56,309 bases of DNA. Source: an uncultured Gammaproteobacteria bacterium (GTDB lineage: Bacteria; Patescibacteriota; Patescibacteriia; Magasanikbacterales; GWA2-37-8). The notes under the pieces are model-generated. The model made no database searches and was not told where the DNA came from. It saw nothing but the letters and a program-made list of their open reading frames with translations. Position 1 is the stretch's first letter, and each line of letters starts with the position of its first letter. The position numbers and the translations under genes were made by a program. The stretch spans positions 1-56,309 of the forward strand of contig CAZBWU010000006.1 in the NCBI GenBank assembly GCA_964496095.1, read 5' to 3'. Below, one piece after another: positions 7,960 through 27,769 of the stretch.

Positions 7960-9474
7960 ATGTTCCTCAAATTAAATTCCGCAGCTGCGGTGGGCCTTGA
8001 TTGCTTACCAGTAGATGTGGAGGTTGATATAAACAAAGGCCAAAGTGCTTTTAATATCGTAGGGCTTCCTGACACTTCTATCCACGAAGCCAAAGACCGT
8101 ATTCATTCCGCTCTCAAAAATTCCGGGTTTTCTTACCCCTTTAACTTTCGCATCCTGGTCAATCTAGCTCCGGCTGATCTGCATAAAGAAGGACCCTCTT
8201 ATGATCTGCCAATGGCGCTAGGCATTATTAGTATTAGCAATGATTTGGAAATAAATTTTACCGACTCGGTCTTTGTTGGCGAACTAGCACTTGATGGCGC
8301 CCTGCGACATACCAATGGTATTTTACCAATTACTATCTTTGCCAAAAAAAATGGCTACAAAAAAATATTCTTACCAGAAGTAAATGCGCCCGAAGCAGCC
8401 CTGGTAGATAACATAGAAATCTATCCAATAAAAAATCTAAAACAACTCGTAGATCACCTCACCGAGGTGGCGCCAATATCGCCATACATCAGACCCGACA
8501 AATGGAACGAGTTTGAAACACCACAATACGAACTAGATATGGCTTTTATCAAAGGCCAAGAGTTTGTGAAGCGCGCGCTTGAGATCGCAGCGAGCGGTTC
8601 ACACAATATATTGATGAGTGGCCCACCCGGATCTGGTAAAACTTTACTGGCTCGTAGTTTTCCATCTATCTTGCCAAAGCTCACACCCGAAGAAGCGCTA
8701 GAAGTTACCAAAATTTATTCTGTAGCTGGCCAATTGCAAAATGGATTCATCAAAGAACGACCATTTCGTTCTCCACATCATACAGCCTCAGGTGTATCAC
8801 TTGTTGGTGGCGGCAAATTCCCACGCCCCGGAGAAATATCTCTCGCTCATCGTGGCGTATTGTTCCTAGACGAATTCCCAGAGTTCCCTCGCACGGTTTT
8901 GGAAAATTTACGCCAACCACTAGAAGACGGCGTTATTACTATTTCGCGCGCGCAAAGTGTTCTCAAATTTCCCGCGAGATTTATTCTTGTCGCTAGTCAA
9001 AATCCTTGCCCCTGCGGATTTAGCACAGACCCAGACAGACAGTGCTCTTGTGGGCCAAGCCAAATCGCGCGCTACCAAAAAAGAATTAGCGGGCCACTTC
9101 TTGATCGTATAGATTTACACGTAGAAGTGCCAAGAGTAAAATTTGAAAAATTAGCATCAGAGATAAACGAAGAATCATCGGCCAAAATTCGTGAACGGGT
9201 GGAAGAGGCCAGACAAATCCAAACCAATCGTTTTAAAAATACAAATATTCACTGCAACAGCGAGATGCGCAACCCGGAAATAAAAGAATATTGCAAACTT
9301 GATAATCAATCTATAGATTTACTTCGCGCGGCCGTCACCCAAATGCACTTATCTGCCCGTGCTTATAATAGAATTCTTAAACTCGCCCGCACTATTGCCG
9401 ATTTGGGCAAGAGTGATAACATTGCATTAGAGCATGTCGCCGAAGCATTACAGTTCCGAGCTAAAATAGAATAA
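7960..9474 (+). CDS. comM: YifB/ComM Mg-chelatase-like AAA+ ATPase
   Basis: VGLPD, Walker A GPPGSGKT, RPFRSPHH, LFLDEFPEF, GPLLDRID, HVAEALQFR. Confidence 0.93.
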   Translation: MFLKLNSAAAVGLDCLPVDVEVDINKGQSAFNIVGLPDTSIHEAKDRIHSALKNSGFSYPFNFRILVNLAPADLHKEGPSYDLPMALGIISISNDLEINFTDSVFVGELALDGALRHTNGILPITIFAKKNGYKKIFLPEVNAPEAALVDNIEIYPIKNLKQLVDHLTEVAPISPYIRPDKWNEFETPQYELDMAFIKGQEFVKRALEIAASGSHNILMSGPPGSGKTLLARSFPSILPKLTPEEALEVTKIYSVAGQLQNGFIKERPFRSPHHTASGVSLVGGGKFPRPGEISLAHRGVLFLDEFPEFPRTVLENLRQPLEDGVITISRAQSVLKFPARFILVASQNPCPCGFSTDPDRQCSCGPSQIARYQKRISGPLLDRIDLHVEVPRVKFEKLASEINEESSAKIRERVEEARQIQTNRFKNTNIHCNSEMRNPEIKEYCKLDNQSIDLLRAAVTQMHLSARAYNRILKLARTIADLGKSDNIALEHVAEALQFRAKIE

Positions 9475-9558
9475 AGCATGCCTGCCCCGTAGCGGTCGCC
9501 TTTGCGACCTGCTACTGGGGTTGCGGAAGCACTGCAATTTAGAGCTAAAGTAGAATAA
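9475..9558 (+). pseudogene. Displaced duplicate of the comM 3' end, interrupted by a 40-bp hairpin element
   Basis: AGCATG|element|TTGCGGAAGCACTGCAATTTAGAGCTAAAGTAGAATAA reads HVAEALQFRAKVE* once the element is removed. Confidence 0.9.
9481..9520 (+). mobile_element. 40-bp bulged-hairpin element (CCCCG..CTGGGG family), copy 1
   Basis: CCTG CCCC GTAG C GGTCGC CTTT GCGACC T G CTAC T GGGG. Confidence 0.8.
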
Positions 9559-10484: not shown

Positions 10485-11054
10485 TTATTTTCCACTTCTA
10501 TTAACCGCTACTTCTTTTGGTGCTTTTTTAACAAAAGTGATTTCTACTTTAACTCTCTTTACCCCAAATTTCATAGCTTCGGCTCTAGTAGTATCTAACC
10601 AGATATCCATACGTCCCAAACCATAACGCTTATTCATACGATCTTCCACTACAAAGATTTTATCTCCATATAAGGCTGGGATCTTGATCTGAGTACCAAA
10701 TGGCAAGCCGTTGGCAGCAATCATCCCATCGTGCACTCTTTTGCCGGTAGCAGCAATAAAAGGGCTGTCATCAGTTTGGCCAGGAGTGCTGGTATAGGCA
10801 GTAATAACTGCATCCATCACCTTGTCCGGCTTCTCCTCTTCGGCAAAGCCATCATCAAAGGCAAGCTTGGTGCTAGTCTCTGGCTTATCTTGGCTAACTG
10901 TATCTAAACCAAAGGTTTTTGGTGTAGAATTAGCCATTTCATGGCCTGCTTGGGCACTAGCTGTCATTGGCAAGATAATTTGGCTAACTACAGCCAAAAT
11001 TACTAGGACTTTAAGTACGGCTGGTGTGGTGTTTTTTGGCTCAACTAAGCGCAT
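10485..11054 (-). CDS. Secreted 3D-domain (MltA-like) protein
   Basis: TAYTS...TDDSPFIAATG, AAN.LPFGT, VEDRM, MDIW. Confidence 0.85.
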   Translation of the reverse strand: MRLVEPKNTTPAVLKVLVILAVVSQIILPMTASAQAGHEMANSTPKTFGLDTVSQDKPETSTKLAFDDGFAEEEKPDKVMDAVITAYTSTPGQTDDSPFIAATGKRVHDGMIAANGLPFGTQIKIPALYGDKIFVVEDRMNKRYGLGRMDIWLDTTRAEAMKFGVKRVKVEITFVKKAPKEVAVNRSGK

Positions 11055-14136: not shown

Positions 14137-14946
14137 TTATTTCTGAACACCGCTTTGCACTTTCTGAACAAAATCTTGGCGGTCCTTTAAATTTGGATAA
14201 AGAATCGTCGCAATCTCATTTATAATTTTTAGTTCTTTATCTGCAAACGGGTCTGGGAATTTATTTCGTCCGTTTGCAACATAAAACAAATATTCTACAA
14301 ATAAAGAATTTACCTTTTTGATTTTTTCTAACTCTTCTTCTCTCTGCTTTTTTAAATCTTCAAGAAGCGCTTCTTTTTGATTGATTCCTTTAAGGGCTAG
14401 TTCTATTTTATTTTTATTAATCTCTAAATATGTATTCTGCTCTTTCAACCTATTTTCGGTTTTATCAAGCATGTTTTGAGCCTGCATACGAACCTTGTCG
14501 GCACTTGTTAAAAGACTGTCTCCTTGTGCTGTAACGCTTAGGGTGCGCTTAGACAATTTTGATATTTCTTTTGTTTGAACATCGATTTCATTTTCCAAAA
14601 GCCCTTGTTTTTTCTTTAAACTTTCCTGCTTTTCATCTATTTCTATTCTTTTATCTTCTATTTTATAAACTAAATCATTTACTTCGTCTCTTTTATTATA
14701 AATCCCTTCTCTTAAATTTTCTAGCTTAAAACCAAAGTACGTAACCAAAACTATTATCGCTATCGCTATTGGCCAAACTACCCAACGAATAATAGTTAGT
14801 ACGCTCTGTATTGTTTTGTTTAGGTTTTTAAATATTTCTTCCTGTGACAAGCTTTTTACAGTTTCTGGTGTAGTACCAGAAACTTTCCCCGACTGTACGG
14901 GTTGTTGCATAAATTCTGAGGTTTGTTCGTTGATTGGTTCGGACAT
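14137..14946 (-). CDS. Single-TM long coiled-coil hypothetical protein
   Basis: One hydrophobic segment then a heptad-rich K/E/Q region; starts 6 nt after the dnaN stop. Confidence 0.65.
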   Translation of the reverse strand: MSEPINEQTSEFMQQPVQSGKVSGTTPETVKSLSQEEIFKNLNKTIQSVLTIIRWVVWPIAIAIIVLVTYFGFKLENLREGIYNKRDEVNDLVYKIEDKRIEIDEKQESLKKKQGLLENEIDVQTKEISKLSKRTLSVTAQGDSLLTSADKVRMQAQNMLDKTENRLKEQNTYLEINKNKIELALKGINQKEALLEDLKKQREEELEKIKKVNSLFVEYLFYVANGRNKFPDPFADKELKIINEIATILYPNLKDRQDFVQKVQSGVQK

Positions 14947-14952
14947 ATGCTT

Positions 14953-16074
14953 TTACTGCCTAATAGGCATCACAATATACACGAAGTTTTTATCTTCTTT
15001 TGGCGCAAGAATACATGGACTCTCGGCGTTTACTACTCTCAGGACCGAAGTTTCTTCATCAATATTTGCCAACCCATCCAAAACATAGCGGTGGTTGAGT
15101 AAGATATTATTTTTTTCTCCTTTTATCTCGGCGCTAGCTTCGGATTTATGTTCACCGGTTTGAGTGGACACAGAAGATATCATCACTGCACCAGCAGTTG
15201 GATCAAACTCAAAGTTAACCGCATTTACACCCACAGTTGTAAACAAGCTAGCAGCTTTGATTTCTTTAGTTATTTGGTTGGTAGAAAACTCAGCTGTGGT
15301 TCTAAATTCTTTGGGGATAATCTGGGTATAATCAGGATATTGACCATCAACCAGTCGTGAAACCAACTCTACTTCATTACACCTCAACACTATTTGGTTT
15401 TCTGTCACTAACAATCTTACATTCTTTTCGTTATCTAACCCTTTGGATAAAGACAAAATATGACTAATCTCTGAAGCAGTACGGGCAGGGATTATAATTC
15501 TTGTTTTTTCATCACCTTGGATTAACTTTACTTTTTTTTCTGCTAATCTATAACTATCCGTAGCAGCCATAGTGATCATATTTGGTTCGTCGTTAAAATT
15601 AAACAACACACCAGCCAACTCTGCTCGGATTTCATTCTTTGAAGCTGCTTGAAAAACCTGCCCCAGACCCTTTTTAAAGAGTTCTAGATCAATAAGGTAT
15701 CCTTTACCCTCTCCGACCACTGGAACGACTGGAAACTCCTCTGCAGAGGTTCCTTTTATCTTTGTAGATGATTTGCCGGACACTACTTCTACTTCGTTGT
15801 CCTTAAGAATCAACTCAACTTTTTCATCTGACAGCAAATTCACAAAATCAGTCAGGGTTCTAGCTGGAACAGTAAAGTTTCCTGGAGTTTCAACTTTGGC
15901 TCGTAGAGTAGCGACCGTTGCCAACTCTAGATTGGTGGCGACTAGTTCTACTTTTTGTTCACTCGCTCTTATTAGAACATTACCCAAGATTGGTAGGTTG
16001 GTGTTTTTGCCGGCCACGCCAATCACAAGCGCTAAGGCTTTGGAAAGGTTTTCTTTTGTGCAGAGAAACTTCAT
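14953..16074 (-). CDS. dnaN: DNA polymerase III beta clamp
   Basis: LPILGNVLI, ATNLE, ATDSYRL, LVDGQYPDY, VMPIR. Confidence 0.97.
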   Translation of the reverse strand: MKFLCTKENLSKALALVIGVAGKNTNLPILGNVLIRASEQKVELVATNLELATVATLRAKVETPGNFTVPARTLTDFVNLLSDEKVELILKDNEVEVVSGKSSTKIKGTSAEEFPVVPVVGEGKGYLIDLELFKKGLGQVFQAASKNEIRAELAGVLFNFNDEPNMITMAATDSYRLAEKKVKLIQGDEKTRIIIPARTASEISHILSLSKGLDNEKNVRLLVTENQIVLRCNEVELVSRLVDGQYPDYTQIIPKEFRTTAEFSTNQITKEIKAASLFTTVGVNAVNFEFDPTAGAVMISSVSTQTGEHKSEASAEIKGEKNNILLNHRYVLDGLANIDEETSVLRVVNAESPCILAPKEDKNFVYIVMPIRQ

Positions 16075-16462
16075 AGTAGATTTAGGTGAATTATGTTTTA
16101 GTTTTTCTTATCTCTTAAAGTTGTACACATCGTCGGCCTATTACTGTTTGTTTAAATATTTATATATAAATACCAATCGTTACTATAAGGCAGTGGATAA
16201 GGTGTATAACTTGTTCGGGGGTCTGATTTTATTATGCGTTTGTGTTTTTGGGTTGTGTATAAGGTGTGGTGATAAAAGTGTGAACAAGTGCAAGAAATAT
16301 TTTTTAGTTTTTTTATCTGTTAATAACGGTCTGTGCTAGGTGGGTAAAAGTGGATAAAGTTTTGGGTTTATACAATTTTTTACAACCCTTATACACAGGG
16401 AAGTAGAATAAAAAGTGTATAAGTCGGAATATTCACTTCCCTGCAGGCGGGTTATTAACTTT
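16075..16462. other. Replication origin (oriC) region between dnaA and dnaN
   Basis: DnaA boxes at 16192, 16254, 16279, 16349, 16389, 16414; AT-rich tract near 16150-16171; the plus strand appears to switch from C-rich to G-rich here. Confidence 0.8.
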
Positions 16463-17866
16463 TTAGGTGACAGTGTTATAGATTTTTTGTTTTATCAATT
16501 CTATTTCTTGTTTTAGTTTAGCGTCCTTTTCTATATCATTGATAATCTTGTTGTCAGCGTGCATAGCCGTAGTATGATCGCGCCCGCCAAGCTCGTGACC
16601 AATGGCCGGATAGGACATGTTTAGTTCTTTGCGCATCAAGTGCATAATGATTTGGCGAGGGTAAGAAAACTTTTTCTCACGACTTTGTCCGAGCAGATCG
16701 GCCACACTAACTGTGAAAAACTCGCTGGCGGCATCAATTATCTGTTGAGGGGTGATGGATTTGTAGGTAGAACGAACTTCGGTATTGGCTAGAAGAGATT
16801 TTACAGACTCAAGCGTTGGTTCCATGTTCTTGAGCTGATGAAGAGCAATTATTTTGTTTAGCGCCCCCTCTAGTTCACGGATATTTCTGTGGATAGTGGC
16901 GGCCACTGTCTGTAATATTTCTTGAGATAGTGGAAAATTCTTTTCTATACATTTCTTTTGTAGGATTGCGATTCTAGTTTCTAAGTCTGGTGGAGCCACA
17001 TCAACAATCATCCCCCACTCAAATCGTGATTTTAGACGGTCTTCAAGGGCTGGTATAGCTTTTGGTGGTCTATCAGAAGTCATGACTACCTGTTTGTTTT
17101 GTTGGTGGAGTTCGTTGAAAGTATGGAAGAAAGATTCTTGAGTTTTGTCTTTGCCAGAGATGAACTGGATATCATCAATAAGTAGTAAGTCTATGTTGCG
17201 GTATCTGTTTTGGAAGTTTTTGGCATTACCGTCGCGGACAGATGAGATATAGTCGTTGGAAAACTTCTCAGCACTGGCATACATGATGTTTATATTTGGT
17301 CGAGCCTTGAGGAGATGGTTGCCGATAGCTTGTAAAAGATGGGTCTTGCCTAACCCTACACCGCCATATATAAATAGTGGGTTATAAGCTTCACCAGGCC
17401 TGTTAACTACAGCTTGAGCCGCTGCATAAGCTAGTTCTGATCCGCCACCAACCACAAAAGTCTCAAAAACATATTTTGAGTTTAAGCCAAACTCGCCTAC
17501 GCGAGCCGGAGCCTTGATTTCGCTAGCTGGAGGGAAATTAGACTGTGGAAAAGTATCTGGAAGAACCGGGGTTTCTGTTTTTTCTTCTATGGCTACAGCT
17601 GGAGTGGTAATGTTTTTTATATTAAAGACCTTGTATTCAAGCTTTTTGATTGGCTTGCCAGTCACTCTTTCTAGGGACTTTACAATCATTTGGTGGTAGT
17701 TTTTTTCTAGCCAGCTTCGATAAAAGTCGTTTGGTACGCATAGTACAGCGCAACTGTCTTGGTAAGACATGATGTCAGTACCGCGAAACCAGGTGACAAA
17801 ATTTGGTTTGGAAATTGTTAATTCCAACTCTCCTAAGACAGCCTGCCAGATTTCGTGGTTGGACAT
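16463..17866 (-). CDS. dnaA: Chromosomal replication initiator DnaA
   Basis: YNPLFIYGGVGLGKTHL, LLIDDIQF, RLKSRF, GRDHTTAMHA. Confidence 0.98.
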   Translation of the reverse strand: MSNHEIWQAVLGELELTISKPNFVTWFRGTDIMSYQDSCAVLCVPNDFYRSWLEKNYHQMIVKSLERVTGKPIKKLEYKVFNIKNITTPAVAIEEKTETPVLPDTFPQSNFPPASEIKAPARVGEFGLNSKYVFETFVVGGGSELAYAAAQAVVNRPGEAYNPLFIYGGVGLGKTHLLQAIGNHLLKARPNINIMYASAEKFSNDYISSVRDGNAKNFQNRYRNIDLLLIDDIQFISGKDKTQESFFHTFNELHQQNKQVVMTSDRPPKAIPALEDRLKSRFEWGMIVDVAPPDLETRIAILQKKCIEKNFPLSQEILQTVAATIHRNIRELEGALNKIIALHQLKNMEPTLESVKSLLANTEVRSTYKSITPQQIIDAASEFFTVSVADLLGQSREKKFSYPRQIIMHLMRKELNMSYPAIGHELGGRDHTTAMHADNKIINDIEKDAKLKQEIELIKQKIYNTVT

Positions 17867-25093: not shown

Positions 25094-27769
25094 ATGAGCA
25101 GGTTAATCATCATTGACGGCAATGCGATAATACACAGGGCCTATCATGCCATACCGCCTCTGACTACCAAGGACGGCAAAATGGTAAATGCTGTTTATGG
25201 ATTTACATCCATGCTTCTTAAAGTTTGGAAAGATTTAAAACCCGATCATATTGCGGTGACTTTTGATATGGCTGGGCCAACTTTTCGGCACGTGCAGTTC
25301 AAAGAATATAAAGCTACGCGTGTCAAAGCTGATCAGGCTCTCTATGACCAAATTCCATTGGTGCATGAAGTGGTAGAATCTTTTGATTTACCAATTTATG
25401 AAATGAAAGGCTATGAGGCTGATGATGTGATAGGAACGATAGTTGAAAAAACAAAAGGCAAAGCAGAGGTCTTTGTGGTGACGGGTGATATGGATACATT
25501 ACAGCTAGTGCAAGAAGGAGTTAAAGTTTATACGCTTCGCAAAGGCATAAGCGATATAGTTATCTACGATACTAAAGAGGTAGAAAACAGATTTGGCTTT
25601 GGTCCAGAAAAAATGGTGGACTATAAAGCCTTGCGCGGAGACACCTCAGATAATATTCCAGGCGTGCCTGGTATTGGCGAAAAAACAGCCACGGATTTGA
25701 TAAAGGCCTATGGCAGTATAGAAAATATTTACGACCAACTAAAAGATGAAAAGTCAAAAATTAAATCAGAGATAAAACCAGGTGTACTAAATAAATTAAC
25801 TGAAGGTGAGGCTAGTGCCAGAATGAGTTTTGAGCTGGCTAGTATTAATTGCGCTGTGCCAGATTTGGATTTCAAGTTAGAAAATTGCAAGATAAAAGAA
25901 TTTAATAAATCAAAAATAGAAGAATTGTTTCAAAAGTTTGAATTTGTTTCATTGTTAAAACGTGTGCCCGGGTTTGATGTGTCAGTGATGGAAAAAGAAA
26001 CCCACAAAAAGAAAAATGAAATAAAAATGGTTTTTTCGGAAATTAAAACAGAGGCAGAACTAGTCGGAATGACCAAGTTAATTGAAAAAGAAAAATCATT
26101 TGTTTGTCGACCAGTATTGAGTGGGAAAGAAGTTTTGGAAACAGATTTGTTAGGATTAATATTTGGCGTGCAAGAAAATTTGTTTTTTGTAGAGACAAAA
26201 ATGATTAAAAAAATCTTGCCGATTTTTCAAAATGAAGAGATTCAATTAGTTGGCCATGATTTGAAAGATTTGTTCAAAGCCCTCAAATTTAATTTTGAAG
26301 CAGAGATAAAAAATAATTTGTTTGATGTGATGGTCGCGTCATATCTTCTTAATCCCGGCAGTCGCGCACATGATATTACCAGTCTGTTATTAAAAGTATT
26401 AGGTAAAACCTTGGCGCAAAACACAGCCCAAACTAATTTATTTGGCGTAGATAAGAAAAACTTGGCCGAAGAATTATTCTTGGTTTCTCAGACCAAAGAA
26501 AAACTACAGACTGAGTTAGAACAAGTTGATAATCTGGGACTGTTTAAAACTATAGAAATGGCGCTTATTCCAGTTTTGGCGGAGATGGAAGTAAATGGCG
26601 TGGCTATCGATCTCAAGATGATGGAAAAACTGTCTAAGGAAGCGACCGAGAGTCTAGAAAAAATAACGGCAAAAATATATAAGTTTGCCGGCATGGAATT
26701 TAACATTGCTTCGCCCTTGCAATTACGAGAAGTATTGTTTGATAAGATGGGGCTTTCAGTGGCAGGCATCAAAAAAGGCAAGACTGGTCTGTCTACCTCG
26801 GCTGAAGAATTAGAAAAATTACGAGACCTGCATCCAATCATTCCTGAAATTTCAGAATATCGTGAGCTGGCCAAATTGCAAAATACCTATATAGATGTTT
26901 TGCCTACCCTAGTCAACAAAAAAACGCACCGTATTCATACTCATTATAATCAAACTATTGCCGCCACTGGTCGTCTGTCTAGCATTGATCCAAACCTGCA
27001 AAACATTCCGATTCGCACCGAACTTGGTCGCGCTGTCCGTAAAGCGTTTATTGCCGAGCCGGGCAATGTGCTGGTAAGCGCCGATTATTCTCAGATTGAA
27101 TTGCGTATTGTGGCATCTCTAGCTGAGGATAAAAAAATGATTGAGATTTTTAACAACGACGAAGATATTCATCAGGCGACCGCGGCGGCGATAAACAATG
27201 TTCCGCTCGATAAAGTGACTAAAGAAATGCGCTATGCAGCCAAAGAAGTAAATTTTGGTGTGCTCTACGGGATGGGTTCGTATGGGCTCAGTTGGCGTAC
27301 CGGCATTTCGCAGTTTGAAGCCAAAGATTTTATCAAAAAATATTTTGAAGCGTTTAGTGGGGTGCGTGAATATATTGATCGCACCTTAGAATTTACCAAA
27401 AAAGAAGGTTATTGCGAAACCTTATTTGGTCGTCGTCGTTATTTGCCAGAACTTAATGCCGGTAATTTTCAACTACGTGCCGCGGCGGAGAGAATGGCGG
27501 TTAATCATCCTATCCAAGGCACAGCTGCGGATTTGATGAAGATGGCGATGATAGAAGTACACAAACAACTAACAACTAACAATAAAGAATTAGCAAAAGA
27601 AACAAGAATGATTTTGCAGGTGCATGACGAGTTGGTTTTGGAAGTAAAAGAAAGTTTGGCGGCAGAAGTCGGTGAGTTGGTAAAAAAGACAATGGAAAAT
27701 GTGGTATCCCTGCGCGTGCCGATTAAAGTCGGGTTGAGCTCTAATCGTAGCTGGGGTGAGATGAAATAA
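25094..27769 (+). CDS. polA: DNA polymerase I
   Basis: IIIDGNA..HRAYHA 5'-exonuclease, GDTSDNIPGVPGIG, DYSQIELR, LQVHDELV. Confidence 0.97.
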   Translation: MSRLIIIDGNAIIHRAYHAIPPLTTKDGKMVNAVYGFTSMLLKVWKDLKPDHIAVTFDMAGPTFRHVQFKEYKATRVKADQALYDQIPLVHEVVESFDLPIYEMKGYEADDVIGTIVEKTKGKAEVFVVTGDMDTLQLVQEGVKVYTLRKGISDIVIYDTKEVENRFGFGPEKMVDYKALRGDTSDNIPGVPGIGEKTATDLIKAYGSIENIYDQLKDEKSKIKSEIKPGVLNKLTEGEASARMSFELASINCAVPDLDFKLENCKIKEFNKSKIEELFQKFEFVSLLKRVPGFDVSVMEKETHKKKNEIKMVFSEIKTEAELVGMTKLIEKEKSFVCRPVLSGKEVLETDLLGLIFGVQENLFFVETKMIKKILPIFQNEEIQLVGHDLKDLFKALKFNFEAEIKNNLFDVMVASYLLNPGSRAHDITSLLLKVLGKTLAQNTAQTNLFGVDKKNLAEELFLVSQTKEKLQTELEQVDNLGLFKTIEMALIPVLAEMEVNGVAIDLKMMEKLSKEATESLEKITAKIYKFAGMEFNIASPLQLREVLFDKMGLSVAGIKKGKTGLSTSAEELEKLRDLHPIIPEISEYRELAKLQNTYIDVLPTLVNKKTHRIHTHYNQTIAATGRLSSIDPNLQNIPIRTELGRAVRKAFIAEPGNVLVSADYSQIELRIVASLAEDKKMIEIFNNDEDIHQATAAAINNVPLDKVTKEMRYAAKEVNFGVLYGMGSYGLSWRTGISQFEAKDFIKKYFEAFSGVREYIDRTLEFTKKEGYCETLFGRRRYLPELNAGNFQLRAAAERMAVNHPIQGTAADLMKMAMIEVHKQLTTNNKELAKETRMILQVHDELVLEVKESLAAEVGELVKKTMENVVSLRVPIKVGLSSNRSWGEMK

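Follow-up and report, generated by a model that had tools for sequence, protein, structure and literature searches.

Gene hybrids formed by the mobile endonuclease ORFs (mORFs) of fungal mitochondria are among the described systems closest to the element reported here. In Allomyces (atp6) and Glomus (atp6, atp9, cox2 and nad3), the inserted C-terminus is 64-81% identical to that of a relative, compared to 91-98% for the native remnant, and the protein is left unchanged (PMC3630166); gene hybrids carrying mORFs have also been described elsewhere (PMC6279837). The element in question is a hairpin of 42-46 nucleotides (nt), four copies of which lie in a 56,309-nt stretch of DNA from a Patescibacteriota genome of the order Magasanikbacterales (assembly GCA_964496095.1, contig CAZBWU010000006.1, analyzed over its full length and termed the window). 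The window is contig C6 of this genome, termed G000, which comprises 1.0 Mb in 14 contigs with 38% GC. Each copy consists of a 5-nt leader (RCYTG or CGAAG) followed by the hairpin, and is GC-rich in AT-rich genomes. The hairpin is a protein-less mobile DNA element, gained and lost between related genomes, and it sits mostly within or at the very ends of essential genes.

Several other systems share one or another of these properties. The yeast mitochondrial GC clusters of type GC42 are GC-rich, protein-less sequences of ~42 nt that occur in many copies in an AT-rich genome and move by an unexplained mechanism (PMC4478555). Rickettsia palindromic elements (RPEs) are found in frame within the protein genes of a reduced genome, where they are translated as extra segments (PMC10969869, PMC1779305). 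The REP (repetitive extragenic palindromic)/RAYT systems and the ends of IS200/IS605 are short imperfect palindromes with an extrahelical base, which are handled in single-stranded form (PMC3733652). In homology-facilitated illegitimate recombination (HFIR) during natural transformation, homology anchors the incoming DNA at one side, while the opposite side is joined non-homologously, with short segments being acquired at high divergence (PMC6382021). Full-text searches of the literature yielded no description of the present element.

Structure of the hairpin

The original prediction, made by a model from the letters of the window alone, proposed four copies of a hairpin conserved in fold and not in sequence, with two invariant bulged thymines. 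All four copies were found at the predicted positions and fold as drawn: the pattern CCCCGYA..TRCTGGGG matched the window four times against 0.02 matches expected from shuffles, and folding of the copies as single-stranded DNA (ssDNA) gave energies of -14.4 to -17.1 kcal/mol (z = -5.4 to -7.4) that none of 200 shuffles equalled. From its base upwards, every copy has the outer stem CCCC/GGGG and a 5-bp stem, each followed by a bulged T, and then a distal stem of 6-7 bp closed by a loop of 3-4 nt. A scan of the whole window by a covariance model, run with the filters off, yielded no fifth copy. The CYTG leader that had been noted for three of the copies was recovered in all three, and the fourth, at 18430, has the leader CGAAG and belongs to another subfamily. 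The notion of a fold without sequence conservation did not hold, as 18 of the 46 alignment columns are invariant among six G000 copies.

Fitting of 54 copies from many genomes to the covariance model revealed the constraints on the family as a whole. Pairing is found in 97.5% of the pair cells, compared to only 29-54% in slid registers, and double changes occur at 8 of the 16 pairs (101 cells), values that none of 500 shuffles matched; the compensatory changes first noticed in four copies are thus also seen in the larger set. The outer stem CCCC/GGGG is kept in 52-54 of the 54 copies, the CCCC together with G10, A12, G15 and their partners is almost fixed, and the middle stem is limited to a few covarying types (GTACC, GTAGC, GTAGT, GTACT, GCACC and others). 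All 54 copies have the inner bulged T, whereas the outer bulge varies: it is a pyrimidine in 52 of 54 copies (42 with T and 10 with C) and missing from the other 2, and in the CCCT..AGGG subfamily a T-A pair takes its place. In the larger alignment, the bulged T is thus invariant at the inner position only. The distal stem is variable as predicted, except that some copies share it, as do those at 18430 and C1:203806.

On the strand that carries the bulged T, wobbles are distributed unevenly, with 22 G.T against 5 A.C pairs, an asymmetry indicating that the fold matters on this strand. Because most copies are antisense to their host gene, this strand is likelier to act as DNA than as mRNA. Together these observations argue for a fold that acts on one strand, with single-stranded DNA favoured over mRNA.

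The copy at the start of dnaE is orthologous in G000 and in its sister species G015 of the same genus, and its leader, outer stem and middle stem are identical in the two, compared to a wholly different distal stem-loop (GAGCCAC-TCTT-GTGGCTC in G000, GATCGC-CAAGC-GCGATC in G015). The distal stem of the G000 copy equals that of the copy in rnpA. The distal difference suggests, from these two alleles, either conversion between copies or a very fast turnover of the distal part.

Distribution and mobility

The element was traced in 16 genomes of the genus, namely G000 and 15 others, and in a sample of the class comprising 401 genomes from 300 genera, in which covariance-model matches were accepted at E <= 1e-5. 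With a model seeded by six copies, nine good copies were found in G000, four in the window, three on contig C1 (203806, 206302 and 270615) and two on C2 (11856 and 32577). The other 15 genomes of the genus carry from none (six genomes) up to 13 and 29 copies. The search of genomes of the candidate phyla radiation (CPR) that had been proposed as a check returned further copies in 43 of the 401 class genomes, representing 35 of the 300 genera, with up to 14 copies per genome. Besides Candidatus Magasanikbacteria, further CPR members of the class serve as hosts, and one exact subtype also occurs in metagenome-assembled genomes of Kerfeldbacteria and Parcubacteria. Empty sites were found in related genomes at rnpA, hppA, dnaE, polA and comM, and some copies are nested inside the T-rich loops of other copies. 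The patchy distribution, the empty sites and the nesting identify the hairpin as an element mobile at the DNA level, in line with the original prediction.

Two subfamilies could be distinguished. Copies of the first have the RCYTG leader, mostly occur 3' of a T-run and lie antisense to the gene; in those of the second, the leader is CGAAG, CGCAG or CAACG, an A-run that ends in G precedes it, and the copy lies in the sense orientation in a frame that always reads AKPRTE..GSGTG. A loose pattern matched 104 viral contigs, of which one passed the covariance model, and this contig carries secA and looks cellular. Among 80 metagenomic loci fetched with a 16-mer of the hppA spacer, none passed the model. 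Replication strand bias was uninformative, since hairpin orientation tracks gene orientation.

Members of other repeat families, tgtcatcctgagcgtagccgaaggatctc and gtcattcccaacttgattgggaatcc, occupy the 3' flank of the copy at the start of dnaE (C1:203600-203800). The same motifs also flank some tiny GIY-YIG open reading frames (ORFs), for example at C8:20971, and several hairpin families share insertion spots.

Copies at gene ends

At gene ends the element has a constant layout. Read along the hairpin strand, the gene runs to a complete terminus, 5-19 nt of spacer separate this from the leader and hairpin, and a second copy of the terminus begins at the 3' base of the hairpin. We term the terminus contiguous with the gene a' and the displaced second copy the orphan; the insert between them measures 50-70 nt. 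In the window this layout is found at comM, where the last codons are present twice, at hppA, where an 18-residue peptide is repeated, and at polA, where MSRLIIIDGN occurs twice (Table 1). It recurs at lepA in G000, uvrA in G015 and G003, comM in G003, polA in G002 and hppA in another genus (g26), as well as at yebC, gap, an epimerase gene and a typA-like gene, so that both 5' and 3' gene termini are affected. An automatic scan of the flanks of the 54 copies detected a duplicated peptide scoring above the top null in 10-11 of them. Polarity does not vary among nine independent gene sites (comM, hppA, polA, lepA, uvrA, yebC, gap, epimerase and typA-like): the terminus taken to be incoming lies 5' of the hairpin and the orphan at its 3' base. 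The chance of such agreement is 2^-9, and gene expression does not demand one orientation.

Comparison with related genomes was used to tell the two termini apart, with G015 as the nearest relative for hppA and for the patches described below. The hppA insert is present only in G000 within the genus; against G015 its orphan matches at 49 of 57 positions, close to the gene background of 87%, and a' at 40 of 57. At the empty polA site of G013, the tRNA-Cys gene is followed by two bases and the polA ATG, and the orphans of G000 and G002 lie at exactly that place. Compared by eye to the real start in G013, the polA orphan of G002 is ~86% and the functional copy ~69% identical; likewise, the uvrA orphan of G015 is ~86% and its a' ~67% identical to G000, again as counted by eye. 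The comM orphan runs into downstream sequence that follows comM in G001, G014 and G006. As the orphan is closer to the relatives or lies at the native place, it would be the recipient's own end, and a' would have arrived together with the spacer and hairpin. We thus infer from sequence comparison that the contiguous a' copy is foreign and the orphan native.

Several junctions recur in distant genomes, that of comM in G000 and G003, that of polA in G000 and G002, and that of hppA in G000 and genus g26. At hppA, the two genera share the junction, with spacers (ACCCGACTTG) that are almost alike, and the orphans of different genomes differ only synonymously.

In another family of the order, a copy (locus L009, G039:C18:8696-8734) lies in the anticodon loop of a partial tRNA-Leu gene beside an intact one. 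It is flanked by a 62-nt repeat with 61 of 62 positions identical, and its leader CCTG repeats a native CCTG at the insertion point.

Spelling of the duplicated termini

The two termini encode nearly the same peptide in different codons. Over twelve pairs of a' and orphan, comprising 118 codons, only 6 amino-acid differences were found. Among the codons for the same residue, 84 of 112 differ, compared to 67.4 +/- 4.8 expected from independent draws according to codon usage (z = 3.4, P ~3e-4). For the first seven pairs, 56 codons differ against 40.7 expected (P = 1.5e-5), and synonymous changes make up 58 of the 72 nucleotide differences, compared to 23% expected at random (P = 2e-24), with proportions of synonymous and nonsynonymous differences (pS and pN) of 1.15 and 0.08. 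Each of the three serine pairs has a TCN codon in one copy and an AGY codon in the other, and no more than 3-8 consecutive nt are identical when a' and orphan are compared in register.

The dominance of synonymous differences indicates that both copies were shaped as functional coding sequences in different lineages, and the same numbers led us to reject the neutral decay of a long target-site duplication. Mutagenesis of the kind caused by diversity-generating retroelements was also rejected, as the differences between the copies have no adenine bias by eye. Judging from the codon counts, some filter appears to favour maximal nucleotide dissimilarity of the termini. Possible filters include the loss of structures with similar repeats, given that hairpins stimulate deletion between flanking repeats, a duplication that arises only when the termini cannot pair, and immunity to a nuclease.

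Copies inside genes

Most copies sit within ORFs, mostly antisense to the host gene, and most intragenic copies are spanned by long ORFs. The net inserts are multiples of three (+36, +42, +42, +48 and +48 nt) and contain no stop codon; they are predicted to be read through as a flexible loop of 12-16 residues rich in Gly, Ser, Thr and Pro. With a core of 42 or 43 nt, the inserts become multiples of three via small adjustments on the 5' side. The copy at 18430 is a simple in-frame insertion of +48 nt into a loop of the RNase P protein, read as ...KKEAKPRTEPLSGSGTGDSE... in G000, and its site is empty (...AAAAAAGAAG^AT...) in all 14 other genus genomes that have the gene. The antisense dnaE copy at C1:206302 adds a net +36 nt in G000, and the site is empty in 10 of 10 other genomes compared.

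Internal copies are usually accompanied by a diverged patch of 30-90 nt that lies on the 5' side of the hairpin only. In rnpA, the identity to G015 falls stepwise towards the hairpin on its 5' side (Table 1) and returns at once to 27/30 on its 3' side. For the copy in the middle of dnaE, the identity to G015 is 11/30 on the 5' side and 28/30 on the 3' side, compared to 24-29/30 elsewhere; for that in the middle of uvrA, the corresponding values against the nearest relative are 14/30, 24/30 and 24-30/30. None of the internal copies compared has a patch on the 3' side only.

Features of the window and its genome setting

The features of the four window copies are listed in Table 1. A scan of the whole window against Rfam at the gathering threshold returned four tRNAs only and left the hairpins unmatched. 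No T/U-run follows the stem in any window copy, the 3' flanks being TTGCGG, ATTCAG, TGATTA and TTTCCA.

Table 1. Element copies and associated gene termini in the window
Feature	Position	Strand	Description
Element copy 1	9480..9523	+	Leader GCCTG 9480-9484, hairpin 9485-9520; 10 nt 3' of the comM stop; 59.3 bits
comM terminus a', putative replacement 3' end	9436..9474	+	Encodes VAEALQFRAKIE and stop; contiguous with the ComM-like ORF 7960-9474
comM orphan terminus, putatively native	9521..9558	+	Encodes VAEALQFRAKVE and stop; touches the hairpin 3' base and runs into native downstream DNA
Element copy 2	18425..18469	+	Sense subfamily, leader CGAAG, hairpin 18430-18466; in frame (AKPRTEPLSGSGTG) in the RNase P protein loop
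rnpA diverged patch	18350..18424	+	Hairpin 5' side only; 24/30, 17/30 and 13/30 nearing the hairpin vs 26-30/30 elsewhere (nearest relative)
Element copy 3	21298..21341	-	Leader ACTTG 21337-21341, hairpin 21301-21336; after the hppA stop
hppA terminus a', putative replacement 3' end	21348..21404	-	H+-pyrophosphatase gene, 18-residue peptide; 70% nt identity to nearest relative
hppA orphan terminus, putatively native	21245..21300	-	Same peptide as a'; 86% nt identity to nearest relative, equal to the gene background
Element copy 4	25029..25074	-	Leader ACTTG 25070-25074, hairpin 25032-25069; between the orphan and functional polA starts
polA terminus a', putative replacement 5' end	25094..25123	+	MSRLIIIDGN, contiguous with the gene; 5' of the hairpin on the hairpin strand
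polA orphan start, putatively native	25003..25031	+	MSRLIIIDG, directly after tRNA-Cys, as in the G013 empty site

All neighbours of the window copies are housekeeping genes, namely lspA, comM, a cyclophilin (peptidyl-prolyl isomerase) gene, PBP1, dnaN, dnaA, rpmH/rnpA and yidD, followed by trigger factor, hppA, an M23 peptidase, tRNA-Cys and polA. A probable replication origin region lies at 14900-18300, from which dnaN (14953-16074, -), dnaA (16463-17866, -) and rpmH-rnpA-yidD (18048-19059, +) diverge. The cumulative GC skew has its minimum at ~12-16 kb, and all four window hairpins lie within 9 kb of the origin region. In the composition profile, the segment 2000-8000 has ~48% GC compared to 38% for the genome. 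Three minus-strand ORFs of 175-269 residues (10485-11054, 14137-14946 and 19109-19636) have no Pfam match at E <= 0.001.

The similarity of G002 to G000 is a mosaic, with 99% amino-acid identity in the C-terminal part of hppA and 97% in the first half of comM, compared to 75-85% elsewhere (polA, dnaE and rnpA). This mosaic, as read from the aligned proteins, suggests frequent recombination between species of the genus.

Candidate enzymes

The hairpin had been taken for the substrate of a trans-acting ssDNA recombinase, on the model of IS608 TnpA or of an integron integrase acting on attC. The mobility and the strand-specific fold agree with such a substrate. However, the named enzymes do not: the Y1 HUH transposase domain (PF01797) is absent from 15 of the 16 genus genomes, including the hairpin-rich G000, G003 and G015, while control genomes were matched; the element has a single hairpin and not two ends; and the integron boxes RYYYAAC...GTTRRRY (AAC...GTT) are absent from it. 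As far as testable, the element is therefore not an IS608- or integron-type substrate, whereas a trans-acting, structure-specific enzyme could still be involved. The predicted clustering beside a transposase or recombinase gene was not seen, as no such gene lies near the window copies; tyrosine recombinases were not searched genome-wide. The IS91-type Y2 domain (PF04986) gave no match, with the control likewise silent.

Reverse transcriptase (PF00078) is present in 4 of the 16 genus genomes and absent from G000, G003 and G015, and was rejected as a driver because it is missing from these hairpin-rich genomes. The element contains no ORF, and no hairpin split around an ORF was found in G000 or the fetched loci, which led us to drop the idea of an autonomous version of this form. 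Besides UvrC, all 16 genus genomes (0.8-1.1 Mb) encode 1-8 free-standing GIY-YIG ORFs of 80-130 residues, a large number for genomes so small. Such tiny genes were rejected as a linked driver: they are present everywhere, their copy number is uncorrelated with that of the hairpin (29 hairpins and 2 small ORFs in G003, 1 hairpin and 8 ORFs in G011), and none adjoins a hairpin in G000. Pairs of same-orientation hairpins as the ends of a cassette (9485/18430, 21301/25032 and the dnaE pair) were also dropped, because a short patch of its own accompanies each hairpin and the intervening DNA resembles native sequence.

Proposed mechanism and alternative explanations

The foreign 5' patch, the differently spelled duplicate termini and the in-frame insertions, none of which the original prediction included, point to homology-anchored transfer between genomes rather than to classical transposition. 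We tentatively favour, at somewhat less than even chances, a polar transfer anchored by homology and ending at the hairpin 3' base, with the hairpin as a mobile protein-less element. The mobile piece would begin with 30-90 nt of donor 5' flank, continue through the leader and end, at its 3' side, with the base of the hairpin. The flank would pair with the homologous gene of the recipient, possibly after DNA uptake, on which CPR bacteria depend. The folded hairpin tail would be kept and not trimmed, and synthesis or ligation would continue on the recipient DNA where pairing had stopped. Where the donor terminus is spelled too differently, the whole piece of terminus, spacer and hairpin would be looped in, leaving the native terminus as a duplicate. 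By acting as micro-anchors, the A/T-run flanks might allow jumps to new sites, among them the loops of other copies. The end itself may be made by a structure-specific nuclease, or host replication and recombination may suffice. A transfer of this kind would account for the 5'-only foreign patch, the exact 3' junction and the 5'-side adjustments to multiples of three.

A further reading, which we hold to be possible but rather doubtful, is that of a self-rescuing gene-end homing element, in which a unit of less than 110 nt, made of replacement terminus, spacer and hairpin, overwrites the first or last 8-18 codons of essential genes in new hosts. In it, the hairpin 3' base would set the DNA end that is joined to the target, and the extreme respelling would be selected. 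The respelling may block recombining-out, or may give immunity to a trans-acting nuclease, as in a natural cleave-and-rescue drive. If this were so, CPR and possibly DPANN genomes would exchange pieces of essential genes via a dedicated miniature vehicle.

Several points weigh against the polar transfer. Three of its steps are inferred: a DNA end at the 3' base of the hairpin, a folded tail that is kept, and jumps by micro-anchoring. One sense-type copy (G015 C5:12883) has no 5' patch, and one antisense internal copy is ambiguous in this respect. The comM orphan and a' are, by eye, about equally distant from their nearest relatives. No donor genome with the exact a' sequences was found, so that the word foreign rests on patterns of divergence. 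At the tRNA-Leu locus L009, unlike at the protein genes, the hairpin is separated from the repeat boundary by 11 nt of the duplicated gene, hence the 3' junction is not always at the hairpin base. As for the fold, the pair counts of the 54 copies come from a model-fitted alignment, and covariation in a palindrome can come from templated correction between its arms, without selection; because the arms can gain matched changes in this way, the invariant bulge is the better sign of selection.

Among the alternatives, of which the first three may overlap with the polar transfer, a non-autonomous homing element would rely on a nuclease in trans that cuts the empty gene close to the junction; its repair then copies the donor terminus and hairpin; the tiny GIY-YIG proteins would be the candidates, the respelled filled allele would be immune, and the whole would resemble a mORF that has lost its nuclease gene. 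The architecture is indeed that of the mORF gene hybrids, with the peptide kept (PMC3630166), every genus genome has its 1-8 tiny GIY-YIG ORFs, the excess respelling of the termini is what immunity would predict, and the junctions at comM, polA and hppA recur in distant genomes. However, GIY-YIG numbers do not track hairpin numbers, G000 has no GIY-YIG ORF beside a hairpin, no hairpin halves enclose an ORF, and the junction sites in different genes have no common sequence, so that a single protein could not recognize all of them; we consider this explanation unlikely. Similarly unlikely is a passive palindrome spread by ordinary homologous recombination, with the gene body and the orphan as arms during natural transformation, in which only very dissimilar repeats would survive because the hairpin stimulates deletion between direct repeats. 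It would fit the hppA junction and nearly identical spacer in two genera, the orphans that differ only synonymously between genomes, as if refreshed from functional genes, the short identical runs of 3-8 nt between a' and orphan, and the exchange of GC42 clusters between yeast species via conserved flanks (PMC4478555). It leaves unexplained, however, how the structure arose at nine or more genes, why the hairpin polarity is shared by all sites, why internal copies have a 5'-only patch, and how copies came to lie in the loops of others and in A/T runs of unrelated genes.

An ssDNA transposase or recombinase (IS200/IS605 TnpA, a REP-associated Y1 or IS91-type Y2 enzyme, or an integron integrase) that moves the 42-46 nt core is improbable, and less expected than either of these. 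The strand-specific fold with its invariant extrahelical T and the insertions into single-stranded loops of other copies and homopolymer runs would suit it, and the leader CTTG resembles the CTTG/GTTC target of IS91. Against it stand the near-complete absence of PF01797 from the genus (15 of 16 genomes), the single hairpin per element where two ends would be needed, the missing AAC/GTT boxes and the lack of a recombinase gene near the window copies; moreover, cut-and-paste of the core does not account for homologous foreign flanks. Least probable of all, and hardly to be expected, is a functional RNA (a terminator, mRNA stabilizer, regulatory hairpin, tiny intron or bypass signal) or retro-homing through cDNA. 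Two window copies do lie 10-11 nt past stop codons in the sense orientation, and co-conversion of the 5' flank only is a feature of group II intron retrohoming and is mentioned in PMC4478555. Yet the stems of the window copies have no following U-run, most copies are antisense to the gene, the frame is kept and stops are avoided, neither of which splicing or bypass would need, no Rfam match was obtained, and PF00078 is absent from G000, G003 and G015.

The element illustrates how selfish DNA can colonise the conserved essential genes of a minimal genome (dnaE, polA, uvrA, rnpA, lepA and hppA) without killing the host, through a harmless loop or a spare end. The uniform polarity and exact 3' junction offer a handle, open to testing, on a recombination pathway that would move 100-nt pieces of essential genes between species of CPR bacteria, which as yet do not grow on their own in culture. 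The termini, spelled more differently than by chance, appear to be a rare case of natural selection on nucleotide dissimilarity itself. In CPR annotations, the inserts show up as loops that seem to be additional, as decoy starts and as orphaned pieces of genes, and they form mosaic patches able to mislead marker-gene phylogenies. If a hairpin-terminated strand inserts itself, the principle might be used for marker-free insertion of short sequences.

Comparison with known systems

The mORF hybrids and the present gene ends have the same order of gene body, foreign C-terminus, mobile insert and native remnant, with the remnant closer to relatives, and both systems read as transfer between species. 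They differ in that the mORF is an endonuclease gene of ~1 kb with its own homing, compared to a hairpin of 42-46 nt without an ORF in bacterial hosts. Moreover, the hairpin element also replaces 5' termini and occurs in frame inside genes. The GC42 clusters resemble it in their constrained stem and free loop, rapid gain and loss, mergers and nesting, and exchange between species via the flanks, whereas GC clusters are mostly intergenic, with a putative short AG target duplication. Neither replacement termini, a 5'-only foreign patch nor systematic in-frame insertions into essential genes are reported for GC42 (PMC4478555).

Like the RPEs, the element is a palindromic repeat that lies in frame in coding genes and is read through, translation of the present inserts being predicted from the long ORFs that include them. 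The RPEs, of ~100-150 bp, are unrelated in sequence, and neither replacement termini nor a polar foreign flank are known for them. REPs also have a conserved head by the stem, which finds a counterpart here in a G-Y-A-N inside the stem that is reminiscent of GTAG; they differ in being extragenic and in co-occurring with a Y1 enzyme, and IS200/IS605 have two different hairpin ends. The attC sites are alike in design only, in that one strand has extrahelical bases and the terminal stem-loop varies, and integrons hold their cassettes in an array beside intI and attI, compared to copies scattered in housekeeping genes here.

Prophages and islands such as e14 in icd integrate at a gene's 3' end and bring a substitute for it. 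As in the present case, the gene end is duplicated, the gene is kept whole by the element's copy, and the native end stays behind, displaced; however, e14-type elements measure kilobases and have an integrase and an identical att core, whereas the present unit, including the terminus, is shorter than 110 nt, has no integrase, and shares an identical run of only 3-8 nt. HFIR joints are scattered at microhomologies, often with deletion of recipient DNA, in contrast to a joint at one hairpin base with the recipient DNA kept. Altogether, the element belongs to none of the families compared (mORF, GC cluster, RPE and HFIR), and is set apart by self-rescuing replacement of gene termini without an encoded protein, strict polarity and the excess dissimilarity of the two terminus copies.

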